Origin: a virus
Lineage: Duplodnaviria; Caudoviricetes
Virus record (IMG/VR): IMGVR_UViG_3300037484_000435
Span: 448,001 to 512,000 of that record
Reading direction: 5' to 3' (one strand)
DNA: 64,000 bases
Shown here in pieces: positions 22,752 through 44,604 of this stretch (its first letter is position 1; each line of letters starts with the position of its first letter). Made by a program: the position numbers and the translations under genes. The notes beneath the pieces were generated by a model. The model saw nothing but the letters and a program-made list of their open reading frames with translations, ran no database searches and was not told where the DNA came from.

Positions 22752-22979
22752 TCATTCCTCATCATCGTCTTCATTAAATTTTCCGTCCAGCACATCCTGC
22801 AACGTGCCTTCCATCTCCCACGTGTGGTGACAGCATGTGCACCAGAACTCGACCAAGGGCATTATGACCTTGGGCCTGTGCTCAAGCCATACACCCTGTA
22901 CTTGAAAATAAGTGGGGGATGCGACATCCACGTTATGAACACCCAACAAGTTGGAGCCACATTGTCCGCAATGAATCAT
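22752..22979 (-). CDS. Zinc-finger hypothetical protein
   Basis: CxxC...CxCC; start at ATG 22979 overlapping the IsrB stop. Confidence 0.6.
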   Translation of the reverse strand: MIHCGQCGSNLLGVHNVDVASPTYFQVQGVWLEHRPKVIMPLVEFWCTCCHHTWEMEGTLQDVLDGKFNEDDDEE

Positions 22980-23995
22980 GACGGTACCCCGATCCACGAC
23001 CAGCGCCAACTTGAGTATGTTTTGAAATTACAGTCATTTGGTTTAATCTTTTGACTCAGGCGCTTGCCTGTTTTTAAATCGTGTAAACTCAATCGATCCC
23101 CCTTATACCCCCCAATATAAGTTAATTGATATGTAGGGTGTTTAATTATACTACCACGCTTAAATCCCAAACTCATCGTGCTCCCGTAACGTTCGGGATT
23201 GCCTCCCTTCTTTAAATGAAATCGATGAAGTTGCCTGCGGTGAAATCGTAAAAATTCAACTCTTAGAATTCTTGTCATTGGGTTTAAATTCTTACTAAAG
23301 AAAAGTTCTGTTAAACAATGAGAGTCGACATTATGGGCTTCCCAAGACTCTTCTAACTTGTTTGTGGCCTTTCTAAATTCTCTTTTTTCGCGATGTTTCT
23401 TTGTGGCAGATCCAAGTATTTTATAAAAACCAAACCTTTCTGTAAAAAATTCATATAACCAAGTTTTACCAACCTCCAAGTTACTAAAAGCATCATTCCA
23501 TTTCGAATGTCCTTTCTTAGTGAAAGCTTTAATATCTTCAATGATAATATCCGTGATTGGTAAAATCTTGTTAAGCCAACTCACTAAACGAATCTTTGTT
23601 TGCCATCTGGCTTTTATTGAGGGTGGCAAAAAAGCCTTGTTTTTTCCCTTGTAGGGATTAGGTTTTCTACAAGGTGTTTTACGTGAACGTCTGGCTTTAC
23701 GCATGTCTCGTCGTGTAGACATAGACTCACTCACCCAATCAGGGGTATTAGTGAGAATGTTTAGCACTACTTGTTTTTCTGTTGCAACCGTATAGGCCTC
23801 CCGCTTGGATCCTGTATCTATCCCAACTACAACTTTCTGTTTTTTATCGTCAGATGGTTCAGTATTGAGCCTTACACAGAATATTCCTCTCTTCCAAAAC
23901 GGAGTTGCTTTACCTAATTTAATCCATCGTCTGGCCCTAGAAGGAGTTGTAGGCATTAAAGGGTTTTGCTCTTTGTCAATTACTGGAACTAACAT
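22976..23995 (-). CDS. isrB: IsrB (HNH-less IscB relative; RRXRR/PLMP plus RuvC)
   Basis: PLMPT..RAR N-terminus, GIDTG, Arg-rich bridge helix, IIIED, H.VD; no HNH; 339 aa. Confidence 0.9.
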   Translation of the reverse strand: MLVPVIDKEQNPLMPTTPSRARRWIKLGKATPFWKRGIFCVRLNTEPSDDKKQKVVVGIDTGSKREAYTVATEKQVVLNILTNTPDWVSESMSTRRDMRKARRSRKTPCRKPNPYKGKNKAFLPPSIKARWQTKIRLVSWLNKILPITDIIIEDIKAFTKKGHSKWNDAFSNLEVGKTWLYEFFTERFGFYKILGSATKKHREKREFRKATNKLEESWEAHNVDSHCLTELFFSKNLNPMTRILRVEFLRFHRRQLHRFHLKKGGNPERYGSTMSLGFKRGSIIKHPTYQLTYIGGYKGDRLSLHDLKTGKRLSQKIKPNDCNFKTYSSWRWSWIGVPS

Positions 23996-33731: not shown

Positions 33732-33995
33732 ATTAAGTCGCCTCCTTGAATCACATTTTTAATTGTGATTCCAAATTATTGTCCTGCCTTTTAAAAGTAA
33801 TTTACATTTTTCTGGTTTTACATTGCACGGTTCTCCTTTCACGTGGCGAAACGCGATACGAACCTTTATCTAACCTACTCACATATCAATGCGTTGATAT
33901 TATTATCAACACTAACTCGGGTCACCGATTAATTACTAACCTATTATACACATTAGAGTGATGCTTTGAACTAATTCTTAAAAGGAGATTTTTTT

Positions 33996-35105
33996 ATGAA
34001 ATTAACCGTCCCTCTAAAGCTACTAACCGATGGAACTCAATCTAAAATCCTTCACGATACTATTCTGGAGGCTAATAGGGTAAGTAATTTAATCGCGTCT
34101 ATTGCTTGGGAACGGCATACAGTAGGTAAGATTGCTCTACAAAAATTAGTTTACCATGATCTACGTAACAAAACTACTCTGTCATCACAAATGTTAATTC
34201 ATGCGATTCATAAAGTTGCTGATGCTTATCGGATTAACAAAAAGGTTGTTCCCCAGTTTAACCCCAAAGGTTCTATTGCTTATGATGCACGGATACTTAC
34301 CGTTCGGAATGAAAAACAATACATCACAATATGGACAACATTGGGACGCATCAAAGTTGCTTACACGTCAGGCACTAAACAGCTTAAGTTATTAAATCAA
34401 ACTATCAAGATTGGGGAATGTGACCTCATCTTGAGAAATAACCGATGGTACCTACATTGCTCTCTAGAAGTTCCTGAGAAGCACCATCAAAAACCCCAAG
34501 GCATGTTGGGAGTCGATCTCGGAATTAAGAATATTGCGGTAACTTCCGACAATAAGGTTTATTGTGGTGCCCAACTTAACAGTTTACGTAAACGCCACTG
34601 CCGTTTGCGTGCTAAATTGCAATCGAAGGGAACCCGTTCCGCAAAACGGTTGCTACGTAAACGTAGTAAACGTGAATCTCGGATGGCGCGCAACGCTAAT
34701 CACATAATCTCCAAACGTATTGTTGCCACGGCTAAATGCACGAAGCGTAGTATTGCCCTTGAAAATCTTAAAGGCATTACTAAGCGGACTAAGGTTTCTA
34801 AAGCCCAGCGTAATCAGCAACATAGTTGGAGTTTTTACCAACTTAAATCTTTCATTGAATATAAGGCCCGCCTCGTGGGTGTAGAAGTAGTTCTAGTTAA
34901 TCCTAAAAATACTAGCATCACTTGCCCTAAATGTGGCTTAATTCGAAAATCCAATCGTCGTGACCGAGATCACTTCGTTTGTAGACGTAAAGAGTGTGGT
35001 TACGCTGACCATGCTGATTACGTGGCCGCTTTAAACATCGCGTCTAAAGCGGCGGTTGTGGGGCATAGCCCTAACGTCAACCAACCCAACGTTTCGGTGG
35101 CATAA
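33996..35105 (+). CDS. tnpB: TnpB RNA-guided endonuclease
   Basis: RuvC GVDLG / ALENL / ADYVAALN, CPKC...C zinc finger. Confidence 0.95.
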   Translation: MKLTVPLKLLTDGTQSKILHDTILEANRVSNLIASIAWERHTVGKIALQKLVYHDLRNKTTLSSQMLIHAIHKVADAYRINKKVVPQFNPKGSIAYDARILTVRNEKQYITIWTTLGRIKVAYTSGTKQLKLLNQTIKIGECDLILRNNRWYLHCSLEVPEKHHQKPQGMLGVDLGIKNIAVTSDNKVYCGAQLNSLRKRHCRLRAKLQSKGTRSAKRLLRKRSKRESRMARNANHIISKRIVATAKCTKRSIALENLKGITKRTKVSKAQRNQQHSWSFYQLKSFIEYKARLVGVEVVLVNPKNTSITCPKCGLIRKSNRRDRDHFVCRRKECGYADHADYVAALNIASKAAVVGHSPNVNQPNVSVA

Positions 35106-35148
35106 ACCACTAGAGATAAGTTCTGGGCTTTAATCCAGAATAGTTGAC
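35040..35148 (+). ncRNA. TnpB reRNA scaffold / element right end
   Basis: Terminal hairpin TTCTGG-GCTTTAAT-CCAGAA then TAGTTGAC; the guide would start at 35149. Confidence 0.6.
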
Positions 35149-35160
35149 AAATCATTTTAA

Positions 35161-35325
35161 TTAAGATTGATTCTGAGATTTTTCTTTGGGCTTTATATTG
35201 GGCCGTTGACGCACGGACAATTCGCGTCCACAGGATTCACACTTGTAGATGTTTCTTCTACGTGTTCTCCTGTCTAAAACAAACTGACCGCCACAACTTA
35301 AGCACTTCAGTCGATCTATTTCCAT
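35161..35325 (-). CDS. Small zinc-ribbon protein (54 aa, not in track)
   Basis: AGGAGAGG RBS; MEIDRLKCLSCGG...YKCESCGREL. Confidence 0.7.
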   Translation of the reverse strand: MEIDRLKCLSCGGQFVLDRRTRRRNIYKCESCGRELSVRQRPNIKPKEKSQNQS

Positions 35326-35404
35326 CCTCTCCTAATGAGCACATTTATTGTTATTAGGTAATTTTTACATACAATAGATTTACATTGCACCGAGAATTAC
35401 CAAA

Positions 35405-35617
35405 CTCGTTAGGGCCTCTTCGCCAATGTTATAAAGGCTTTTTAGGTAATACACACTACCCCTTACTCTCAGGATTGTTTAATGTATTACAACAGAGCCC
35501 ACCACTAGAGGAGTATGTTGGGGGTGTTATGACCTAAATAACGTAGCTTCGTATGAAGCTGAGGCTAGTCAACCAAGGCAGTTTAGTGCCTCCACCATTG
35601 AGTGGGAGTTAATTGAC
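35405..35617 (-). ncRNA. Orphan IscB-type omegaRNA (HEARO-like), no linked ORF
   Basis: GTCAA...TTGACTAGCC...CGTTATTTAGGTCAT...ACC...CTCC..AGT...AAACA...AAGCCTTTATAAC.TTGGCGA.GAGG..CTAAC, collinear with the omegaRNA at 42898. Confidence 0.85.
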
Positions 35618-35680
35618 TCTACTCCTTTGCTTACCATAGAAATGTGCTACCCAATATAAAAGGCCAGTTAAACTAGCAGA

Positions 35681-36223
35681 CTATTCTTCGTCGTAGTCCG
35701 CTGGGTCAAAATACTCTTCGTCATCATCAGTAGGCTCTTCCTCAGCTACTGGAGGTGTAACAGCGGCTGCGGCTGCTGCTGCCAGTGCTCGTGCCTTAGC
35801 ACGCTCAGCTTTTTCCTCGTCGGACATCTTGGGCCTGCCCCTTCGCTTGGCTGTTTCCTCAGACGTTTCCTCTTTCGCGGGCGTAACTACCTTGGGAGCG
35901 GAAGGTTTAGAAGCAACGGGTTTAACAGGTTCAGTAACCGCGTCTTGCTTCTCGTATTTTGTTATCAACTCCATGATGCTGGCTTCATCATAGTTGACGT
36001 TCATTACTTCAGCCAGTTGCTGAGCAATAGCAGGGCGGCTAGATTTAGGAACTCCCCCAGCAGCTAACGTTCTGAGAGCAACTGCTTCTCGTTGCAAGCT
36101 CAATCTAGTGCTGTCAGCCTTATCTAAAGCTTCAAGAGCCTCCTTTCTGGTTGTTTCGTTCGCAACAACCTTCTTCTCCAACCGAATCAATTCCTTTTTG
36201 ATGTATTCTGGTGTTACTGACAT
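35681..36223 (-). CDS. Coiled-coil protein with AT-hook-like motif and acidic tail
   Basis: KRRGRPK motif; GAGGAG RBS before ATG 36223; first gene of the left arm. Confidence 0.75.
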   Translation of the reverse strand: MSVTPEYIKKELIRLEKKVVANETTRKEALEALDKADSTRLSLQREAVALRTLAAGGVPKSSRPAIAQQLAEVMNVNYDEASIMELITKYEKQDAVTEPVKPVASKPSAPKVVTPAKEETSEETAKRRGRPKMSDEEKAERAKARALAAAAAAAVTPPVAEEEPTDDDEEYFDPADYDEE

Positions 36224-36274
36224 TAGTCTCCTCAGACTGTTTTGTGTTCCTCTAAAAATGAGGCAACACTTCAT

Positions 36275-42492: not shown

Positions 42493-42855
42493 ATGGGACG
42501 AATTACTAAATTGCTTAAAGATATACTGTATTCCGTAGAAAAAACAACATATGACCCACTGATGGTTTGTCTACTTGAAAAAACGGAAAAGAATATGTTA
42601 CAGTGGTATAGAACCACTAAAGCTGACGGGAGCTACACCACCAAAGACGGAGACCTTACCTTTGAGATCAGACACTATAACGGTTATGAAGACGCATGGA
42701 GTGAGATCACCGTGAAGGACCACGACAACGTTACAATTAAAACAATGTCCCATGGGGCTGAGCGTCTATACCAAATCCTATACAGACGAGAGATGGCCCC
42801 AATGTGGAAATACCAAACAGAATGTGTAGATACTTACCTAAAAGAAAACTGTTGA
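42493..42855 (+). CDS. Hypothetical protein
   Basis: Packed operon ORF. Confidence 0.7.
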   Translation: MGRITKLLKDILYSVEKTTYDPLMVCLLEKTEKNMLQWYRTTKADGSYTTKDGDLTFEIRHYNGYEDAWSEITVKDHDNVTIKTMSHGAERLYQILYRREMAPMWKYQTECVDTYLKENC

Positions 42856-42897: not shown

Positions 42898-43110
42898 GTC
42901 AATTCCTTGTCTTTATGAGATAGACTTGAAAAAATTAAGTCTAATTGACTAGCCCCCACCCAATGAGTGGAAACGTTATTTAGGTCATGCTACCTGAAAA
43001 TGCTCCTCAAGTTTTCAGCCCTAGCGTTTAGGATTAAACAGTTCTGAGAGGTAGGAACAGTGTTCTAAACTTAACAAGCCTTTATAACTGGGCGATGAGG
43101 CTCTAACCCT
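42898..43110 (+). ncRNA. omegaRNA (HEARO-like) of IscB
   Basis: GTCAA...TTGACTAGCC...CGTTA...TACC...TGCTCC..AAGT...AAACAG...CAGTG...GGCGA.GAGG landmarks directly upstream of iscB. Confidence 0.88.
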
Positions 43111-43144
43111 AAGTTGCATCAGCAACAAGGAGTAAAAACTTATT

Positions 43145-44383
43145 GTGTTAGTTTATGTATTAAACAAATGTGGAAAGCCTTTAATGCCCACTACACCACC
43201 TAAGGCTAGAATTTTGCTTAAGGGAGGCAACGCTAAAGTTACCCGAAGAACTCCCTTCACCATACAATTACTCTATGGAAGTTCGGGCTATAAACAACCT
43301 ATAATGTTGGGTGTAGATTCGGGTTACGAGCATGTTGGATTGAGTGCTATCACAGAGAAACAAGAATTATTTTCAGCAGAAGTTTTGCTTAGAAAAGACG
43401 TTTCTAAATTGTTAACAGAACGTCGTGCTTATCGTCGTAATAGGCGTGATAGGAAAGTTCGTTATCGTCAACCTCGGTTTCTGAACCGCGTTAGAACAAA
43501 ACGTAAGGGCTGGCTCGCCCCCCCTATTCAGCACAAACTGGATAGCCATATTAAGGTAGTAAATAAAGTTTCTGAAATATTACCAATTACAAACATCATA
43601 GTAGAAGTAGCCAATTTTGATGTTCAGCGTATCAAGAATCCTGAGATTAAGGGTAAAGAGTATCAGGAAGGTGACCAGTTTGGTTTTGAGAACGTAAGGG
43701 CGTATGTATTGCACCGAGATGAGCACAAATGCCAGCATTGTAAAGGTAAATCTGGTAACAAACATCTTAATACCCATCACATTGTTTTCAGAAGCAAAGG
43801 AGGGAGTGATAGGCCCGATAACCTTATTACATTGTGTAAAACATGCCACGACAAACAGCACAAGGGTTTAATCAAACTCAAGGTTAGCCATAGCCGTAGT
43901 TTTAAGACTGAAACTTTTATGTCTATTGTTAGGTATAAAATTGTTGAGCGATTACGTGAGTTGTATAATAACGCGGATACAACATACGGCTATATTACAA
44001 AGGCGTTACGTAAGCAGTTATTTTTAACTAAATCACATATTAACGATGCTTTCATAATTGCTGGGGCTAACATACAAATCCGCAATACCAAAAATTATCT
44101 AATTAAACAGGTTCGTAAACAAAATCGTAAACTATTCAAGGGTGCCCGTAGTCACACTAAGAACACTGCTCAAAGATTTCTCTTCGGTTTTCAACGTTAT
44201 GATAAAGTAAAGTTTAATAACAAAGATTATCACATATTCGGAAGAAGGCAGAGAGGGTGTTTTAAACTAAGTAATCTAGAGTCAGGACTCTTAAAAACTG
44301 AACCCACCTATAAGAAACTAAAACTTCTGGAAAGCTTCAAAACATTTTTATGGGAGGTAAAGATGGTCCCTAACAATGTTTAG
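43145..44383 (+). CDS. iscB: IscB RNA-guided endonuclease
   Basis: PLMPT N-terminus, GVDSG, Arg-rich bridge helix, IVE, HNH (CQHC...HH...SD..DNL..LC..CH), H.NDA. Confidence 0.96.
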   Translation: MLVYVLNKCGKPLMPTTPPKARILLKGGNAKVTRRTPFTIQLLYGSSGYKQPIMLGVDSGYEHVGLSAITEKQELFSAEVLLRKDVSKLLTERRAYRRNRRDRKVRYRQPRFLNRVRTKRKGWLAPPIQHKLDSHIKVVNKVSEILPITNIIVEVANFDVQRIKNPEIKGKEYQEGDQFGFENVRAYVLHRDEHKCQHCKGKSGNKHLNTHHIVFRSKGGSDRPDNLITLCKTCHDKQHKGLIKLKVSHSRSFKTETFMSIVRYKIVERLRELYNNADTTYGYITKALRKQLFLTKSHINDAFIIAGANIQIRNTKNYLIKQVRKQNRKLFKGARSHTKNTAQRFLFGFQRYDKVKFNNKDYHIFGRRQRGCFKLSNLESGLLKTEPTYKKLKLLESFKTFLWEVKMVPNNV

Positions 44384-44403
44384 GTAGACCATTACACAAA
44401 GGT

Positions 44404-44604
44404 ATGGATTGGCAGATTGGAGACATAGCAGTTATTGACCAAGATTATGATCGCTCAGCAAGCGACAGTCTATTCTATTTACTGGAGTTCTCGAACGATA
44501 CAGCAAGTGGTTACCTAGAAAAAGATAATCAGAAAATCGATTATTCCTGCCCCATATCAAAAATCAGAAGAGTTGCAAAAGTAATAAAGTTCCACACACA
44601 ATAA
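44404..44604 (+). CDS. Hypothetical protein
   Basis: Packed operon ORF. Confidence 0.6.
   Translation: MDWQIGDIAVIDQDYDRSASDSLFYLLEFSNDTASGYLEKDNQKIDYSCPISKIRRVAKVIKFHTQ

Follow-up and report, generated by a model that had tools for sequence, protein, structure and literature searches.

A protein-less, 292-nt derivative of an IscB element with an intact omegaRNA scaffold at a start codon of a 545-kb phage genome, and its possible dependence on a resident nuclease

The isolated HEARO RNA on the minus strand of the analysed window (the whole stretch of 64,000 nt, representing bases 448001-512000 of a 545,322-bp virus record) is not a free-standing gene but part of a precisely bounded, IscB-less mini-element of 292 nt (35326-35617, minus strand), composed of a 210-nt omegaRNA scaffold (35408-35617) and an 82-nt tail (35326-35407). 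This element, in the following referred to as the orphan, is a protein-less derivative of an IscB (ISC, IS200/IS605-type) element. We lean towards regarding it as a guide-only mini-element, which would home by means of an IscB nuclease supplied in trans by one of the resident elements of the phage.

HEARO (RF02033) is the RNA now called IscB omegaRNA. In an Rfam cmscan of the whole 64,000-nt window, the orphan scaffold (35408-35617, minus strand) scores 129.3 bits, with E 1.7e-26 and a match that covers model positions 1-211 of 211. Apart from it, just the plus-strand RNA at 42898-43107 exceeds the HEARO gathering score of 83 bits. A search of the whole genome returned the same result for the orphan. 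All HEARO helices are kept in the orphan, the consensus helices being maintained via compensatory changes. Canonical consensus pairs amount to 47 of 51 in one alignment and to 51 of 55 in another, the latter compared to 47-50 in the IscB-linked copies. Of the 78 columns invariant among the three IscB-linked copies, 68 (87 %) are retained by the orphan, while leave-one-out retention by each IscB-linked copy ranges from 65 to 82 %. Double changes among the HEARO copies of the phage affect 26 of 51 and 33 of 55 predicted pairs, respectively. Judged by its sequence, the orphan scaffold is not decaying, because its retained invariant columns and canonical pairs equal or exceed those of the IscB-linked copies.

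No iscB remnant was detected around the orphan when the four IscB/IsrB-like proteins of the phage were compared by tblastn against 6 kb of sequence (best E 0.18). The 292 nt contain one listed ORF, a TTG frame of 50 aa within and antisense to the scaffold, and the next ORF on the strand of the orphan is a resident 54-aa zinc-ribbon gene (35161-35325, minus strand; Pfam zinc-ribbon matches), which has homologues in eight relatives and is present in relatives without the element. A preceding sequence-only reading of the window had claimed a complete HEARO-like scaffold on the minus strand, no iscB ORF behind it, collinearity with an IscB-linked omegaRNA 7.3 kb away and a different guide in the 5' flank. 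All four points hold: in addition to the full-length model match and the negative tblastn result, the two omegaRNAs share 63.5 % identity including both of the strings quoted at that time, and their similarity begins at the first scaffold base.

The insertion site was defined by means of relatives obtained from the protein database and from contig look-ups of homologues of the 197-aa gene (35681-36274, minus strand), which is located directly upstream; its product has homologues among eleven other metagenome proteins (42-86 % identity). The empty site could be read in eight related contigs (L009-L012, L047-L049 and L051) and consists of a Shine-Dalgarno sequence, 4 nt and the ATGGAA of the zinc-ribbon gene. 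Six further contigs without readable DNA display the same gene spacing and were judged empty by spacing alone; for the closest relative (86 % protein identity), the empty spacing is likewise deduced from gene spacing alone. Homology to the relatives (blastn) stops at 35618-35621 and resumes within the zinc-ribbon ORF, and the insert therefore corresponds to 35326-35617. It is placed, exact to the base, between the Shine-Dalgarno sequence and the ATGGAA start of the zinc-ribbon gene, these first bases of the gene forming the TAM-side flank of the insert and being kept in all eight relatives. The guide-side flank, i.e., the 16 nt directly 5' of the scaffold (35618-35633, minus strand), displays homology to the relatives that stops at the scaffold, and is made up of the original zinc-ribbon Shine-Dalgarno (AAGGAG) plus 4 nt. 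The putative guide is the insertion flank, spelling the empty allele. Further searches for the locus retrieved no match among GenBank phages (megablast, blastn) and no relatives in IMG/VR scans with the neighbouring 197-aa, 54-aa, 120-aa and 222-aa proteins or in a metagenome scan with the 197-aa protein.

The intergenic leader from the 197-aa gene to the zinc-ribbon gene (35634-35680, minus strand) contains a conserved 18-nt block (35640-35657, minus strand) just before the zinc-ribbon Shine-Dalgarno. This block is nearly invariant in nine phages (that of the window, L009-L012, L047-L049 and L051), whose neighbouring proteins share no more than 54-71 % identity. A role as promoter or leader signal is probable, and the block does not fit sigma-70 spacing. 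The leader with this block is a likely source of a transcript carrying guide and scaffold. An upstream string common to both omegaRNAs of the window, TAGTTTAAC, was also considered as promoter motif and rejected, with 5 occurrences in the genome versus 4.2 expected and its other copies being unrelated.

On the other side of the zinc-ribbon gene, between this gene and a 115-aa gene, a TnpB element (~33765-35143; ORF 33996-35105, plus strand) is oriented convergently with the orphan omegaRNA. The TnpB insertion is separate from that of the orphan and absent from all relatives read. The zinc-ribbon gene is flanked by two different RNA-guided elements, and both guides would point at its flanks.

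The 82-nt tail is predicted to fold into a long nested hairpin with the outer stem GGTAATT/AATTACC, closed by pairing between the scaffold 3' end and the bases that immediately precede a new Shine-Dalgarno (AGGAGAGG). This new Shine-Dalgarno at the end of the tail abuts the ATG of the zinc-ribbon gene. The fold has a z value of -2.3, with 3 of 200 shuffles being equally good. Among the collected IscB-linked relatives such a tail is absent, the scaffold being followed by a short hairpin or ~10-25 nt and then by the iscB Shine-Dalgarno. Remnants of iscB codons in the tail were considered and discarded, since, once the conserved scaffold end was set aside, the tail aligned locally to both termini of the three IscB genes with scores in the range of shuffles. 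A CCTAA...TTAGG hairpin near the distal end occurs in the orphan as well as in two full elements, at varying distance from the end; the distal end of the orphan resembles those of full elements loosely, with alignment scores within those of shuffles. In bacterial genomes, the tail pattern had three Bacteroidota matches in unrelated sequence with no HEARO nearby, which were attributed to chance.

The outer stem of the tail and its flank are common to a second IscB-less element, carried by the related phage contig L046, which encodes a 191-aa homologue (56 % identity) of the 197-aa protein. L046 does not possess an empty site and harbours a full HEARO (136 bits), the start of which falls within the final codons of the 191-aa gene and ~60 nt upstream of the insertion point in the window; the stop codon of the 191-aa gene is supplied by the HEARO (L046:1573-1990). 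No IscB was found behind it by tblastn, the next genes being a 52-aa frame and one for a metallophosphatase. The L046 element has three extra hairpins with TAAA-type loops, and its distal flank may be either ATAAT or ATGGA.

The tails of the L046 element and of the orphan share an exact 13-nt and an exact 10-nt string, which correspond to the outer stem, and differ in the sequence of the inner hairpin. These two are the only protein-less copies with such a tail that were found, and they reside at different sites. The L046 scaffold forms 55 of 55 pairs despite ~30 % sequence divergence from the orphan. Comparing the 55 pairs between both elements, 34 are identical, 7 are changed on one side and still paired, 10 are changed on both sides and still paired, and 4 are broken. 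In the scaffold tree, the two elements pair in FastTree (SH-like 0.28), and a four-member phage clade has an UFboot value of 67; scaffold phylogeny was dismissed as proof of sister IscB-less copies, since this pairing is weakly supported. A common IscB-less ancestor of both elements is suggested by the shared tail, to which the scaffold tree adds weak support. If the shared tail reflects such an ancestor, selection would have preserved the structure although no nuclease gene was present in cis, and the element would since have moved to another site. Alternatively, iscB may have been lost independently in both cases, with compensatory changes older than the loss and a full-length ancestor having possessed the same tail.

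A degenerate 25-nt core pattern led to 31 metagenome contigs and one viral contig, most of which carry IscB right behind the RNA. Five contigs (L014, L020, L021, L026 and L037) contain IscB-less HEAROs above the gathering score, which are followed by 0.6 kb or more of DNA free of IscB. Four of these HEAROs match the full model, and the one of L037 is cut by the 5' end of the contig; they are spread over several clades. Up to the start codon, the leader of the IscB-linked L024 from the same sample is retained in L014 and L021, which diverge thereafter. In L037, an HNH-only ORF is located ~1 kb downstream of the HEARO. IscB-less omegaRNAs are thus recurrent in metagenomes, in agreement with the PATE-like elements described by Meers et al. 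(2023, bioRxiv 10.1101/2023.03.14.532601).

The repeated origin of orphan HEAROs (L014 and L021 sharing the leader with L024, as well as L020, L026 and L037) agrees with the orphan representing an inert relic, i.e., a full IscB element that lost its nuclease gene by deletion, leaving behind a recent, neutral RNA which nothing loads; the same applies to the finding that no exact-match target occurs in the collections searched or in the eight relatives. However, the structure of the orphan is as intact as that of the IscB-linked copies or more so, the L046 scaffold is fully paired with 10 double compensatory changes at its level of divergence, and the tail represents a specialised hairpin common to both elements rather than coding sequence in decay. 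An inert relic is considered a possible, though rather unlikely, explanation. Since 10 of 55 pairs carry double changes with pairing kept between the IscB-less copies, a non-autonomous homing element is favoured over a dead relic.

In total, the genome of the phage harbours four HEARO RNAs, one of which is that of the orphan, and three full IscB genes (412, 408 and 408 aa; window 43145-44383, genome 27257-28480 and 134815-136038), each of the latter directly behind one of the RNAs, as well as three TnpB genes. The IscB proteins are 54-67 % identical to one another and the four HEARO scaffolds pairwise 50-71 %, with similarity among the four copies starting at the first scaffold base and unrelated 5' flanks; the scaffolds evidently are old copies. 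Nearest to the orphan scaffold is the omegaRNA at ~136 kb of the genome (71 % identity), followed by the 42898 copy (63.5 %) and the third resident copy (58 %). A Y1 transposase (TnpA) was not detected in the 545-kb genome by PF01797, which matches in control genomes; the host could supply a copy. The first 100 bases of the record (1-100) recur at 545178-545277, ~145 bases before its end; the "linear" record is therefore probably either circular or provided with a short terminal repeat.

The complete IscB element located 7.3 kb from the orphan (42898-44403, plus strand; 1506 nt) comprises an omegaRNA (42898-43107; HEARO, 127.5 bits) ending 37 nt before the ORF of the 412-aa IscB (43145-44383), and an omegaRNA-distal end (44384-44403), which abuts the ATGGAT of a 66-aa gene (44404-44604). 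This IscB, a candidate trans partner of the orphan, possesses RRXRR and HNH domains and matches 7xht/8csz at E 1.7e-47, and its GVDSG, EVANF, HH and NDA motifs (RuvC, HNH) align with OgeuIscB. The sole homologue of the 66-aa gene is found on contig L013, where a Shine-Dalgarno plus 5 nt leads straight into ATGGAT with no insert, the complete element being placed exactly between the two. The orphan and the complete element thus occupy the same type of site (Shine-Dalgarno/ATGGA), and in both cases the guide spans the Shine-Dalgarno. Directly in front of the complete element is a 120-aa gene (42493-42855, plus strand), which has no homologue but itself in a collection of 5.8 billion proteins.

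In the nomenclature of Meers et al. (2023, bioRxiv 10.1101/2023.03.14.532601), the right end of the transposon is the omegaRNA end of an IscB element, with the TAM located past the opposite end; ATGGA is then the TAM-side flank. PMC12660989 gives NWRRNA as the TAM of OgeuIscB, from which that of the phage IscBs may differ; its first five positions are fitted by the ATGGAA of the orphan and the ATGGAT of the complete element. The omegaRNA-distal flanks of all four elements (genome 27045-28497 and 134812-136283; window 35326-35617 and 42898-44403) appear to begin with ATGR, namely twice with ATGGA (verified) and twice with ATGA (from sequence reading). Such ATGR flanks would fit NWRR and explain start codons as landing sites.

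Allowing up to 2 mismatches, the 16-nt guide of the orphan has no other match, and hence no self-target, in the phage genome. When the guide was searched against other genomes, as proposed with the sequence-only reading, neither the viral nor the genome collections contained the exact guide followed by ATGGA, and the eight relatives keep ATGGAA and differ from the guide at 4-6 of 16 positions. In four of these eight relatives, just one of the ten TAM-proximal guide positions differs, because this part represents the Shine-Dalgarno. With the guide covering a Shine-Dalgarno plus start codon, and ATGGAA being kept in all eight, many relatives could be hit. This coverage of Shine-Dalgarno and start codon may be taken to indicate a second guide beneficial to the phage, kept to have a resident IscB also cleave competing phages at their zinc-ribbon locus. 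However, the guide is set by the landing place, as for every IscB/TnpB element, and such a cut would chiefly lead to copying of the element itself. Moreover, 9 of 11 homologous loci do not contain such an RNA, which hence is not a conserved phage feature. A role of this kind is therefore regarded as improbable.

The earlier view of one IscB with two guides, forming a minimal multiplexed system, is for its part less apt, considering that the guide is an insertion flank spelling the empty allele and that there are three IscBs, each with its own omegaRNA. The single IscB assumed for the phage has accordingly to be replaced by three IscB genes and one IsrB-like gene, next to four HEARO RNAs. The other earlier view, a non-autonomous IscB-family element, fits well with a bounded 292-nt insert that is absent from eight contigs, occupies an RBS/ATGGA site and has a sister at another site in L046.

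The favoured explanation, a guide-only element relying on a borrowed nuclease, would involve the following steps. The orphan RNA would be transcribed from the region upstream of the zinc-ribbon gene and start with 16-30 nt of flank acting as guide. This guide would spell the uninterrupted site of insert-free phages, followed by ATGGA(A), which is also the flank of the complete element (42898-44403). The orphan RNA may then be loaded in trans by one of the three resident IscBs, which would cut the empty alleles of co-infecting relatives, and recombinational repair would copy the mini-element into the cut allele in a homing-like manner. Because the mini-element is devoid of a nuclease and the phage of TnpA, it would persist and spread as a passenger, i.e., as a selfish guide-only element rather than as a second weapon chosen by the phage.

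The orphan probably borrows its nuclease from one of the three intact IscB elements. Use of its RNA in trans is plausible in view of the intact structure, the compensatory changes and the identical TAM-side flank. Trans loading is made less certain by the identities of the orphan scaffold to the resident omegaRNAs (58-71 %) and of the IscBs to each other (54-67 %); a literature search on cross-use of omegaRNAs between IscB orthologues retrieved nothing relevant.

A different partner could be the IsrB-like protein of 339 aa encoded 11.4 kb away (22976-23995, minus strand), which has an RRXRR N-terminus and is HNH-less. Its gene is open, its N-terminal 156 aa align with the IscBs, and no omegaRNA was found in the 600 nt upstream of it (nothing matched by Rfam at E up to 1, and no unusual fold, z 0.17), so that the protein might use the orphan RNA. 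However, identity to the IscBs is only 31-36 %, and over the N-terminal part only. The HEARO model may simply miss IsrB-type RNAs, and the solved IsrB, according to PMC9581776, uses a larger omegaRNA of its own. Such a partnership is considered very improbable. Least credible is that the 292 nt now serve solely as a 5' untranslated region tuning translation of the zinc-ribbon gene: the element does supply the Shine-Dalgarno of this gene, which in the predicted fold is partly paired with the scaffold 3' end, but relatives express the gene without the insert, and the whole IscB-binding architecture is conserved rather than just the part near the start codon.

Among known systems, the orphan most directly compares with the PATE-like relatives of ISGst elements in Geobacillus stearothermophilus, which encode omegaRNAs and would depend on a nuclease provided in trans (Meers et al. 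2023, bioRxiv 10.1101/2023.03.14.532601). Both are minimal, protein-less and omegaRNA-encoding elements of the IS200/IS605 family that require a nuclease from elsewhere, take their guide from the flank and have the empty site as target. The orphan differs from the PATE-like elements in (i) residing in a 545-kb phage without TnpA, (ii) possessing a scaffold that is 58-71 % identical to the resident ones, so that its partner is not obvious, (iii) sitting between a Shine-Dalgarno and a start codon and supplying a new Shine-Dalgarno, and (iv) having ends that match those of the full elements only loosely, with scores within shuffles.

Compared to HEARO (RF02033), the orphan matches at full length above the curated threshold with all helices kept, but is devoid of the "ORF" half (HNH/IscB gene) and carries the extra 82-nt 3' hairpin outside the model. 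With the complete element at 42898-44403 it shares the scaffold family, the site (Shine-Dalgarno and 4-5 nt before ATGGA) and a guide over the Shine-Dalgarno of the next gene, whereas the former is a 1506-nt element with a 412-aa nuclease and a short hairpin between scaffold and Shine-Dalgarno, and the orphan a 292-nt element with a long hairpin and no nuclease. Altae-Tran et al. are said to have reported in 2021 stand-alone omegaRNAs in bacterial genomes with many copies. Like these, the orphan is an omegaRNA locus away from iscB, with iscB elsewhere in the genome; unlike these, it occurs just once and in a phage genome, its empty site is verified, and a related phage harbours a sister copy. 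The likeness to the free-standing homing endonuclease genes of T4-like phages is functional only, in that spread is predicted to occur by cutting the element-free allele during co-infection and repair from the carrier. In contrast to those genes, recognition would be accomplished by an RNA guide rather than by a protein, and the moving unit does not comprise a nuclease.

PATE-like omegaRNA elements, stand-alone omegaRNAs and ORF-less HEARO copies are thus already known. Particular to the present case are the phage setting without a transposase and the landing site at a start codon with a replacement Shine-Dalgarno, and there is a hint that the IscB-less form itself is a lineage under selection. 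Tentatively, and as a possibility to which we attach rather low confidence, guide-only IscB elements might constitute a propagating lineage of their own among giant phages. These elements would have shed the nuclease gene while selection maintained their perfect scaffold, they would have acquired a special 3' hairpin as well as a Shine-Dalgarno that renders insertion at start codons harmless, and they would spread between co-infecting phages by borrowing the IscBs of unrelated resident elements, as a parasite of a parasite that needs no transposase.

If the RNA is not loaded, the orphan would be one more transposon remnant, of a kind common in the present metagenome survey. An experiment would be easy to design, given three candidate nucleases in a single genome, verified empty sites and a conserved ATGGA flank. 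If the RNA is loaded in trans, the orphan would provide a compact natural test case for the modularity of IscB and omegaRNA, namely for whether nucleases of only 54-67 % identity to one another accept a foreign scaffold, and would allow testing whether RNA-guided homing carries nuclease-free cargo between phages without TnpA.
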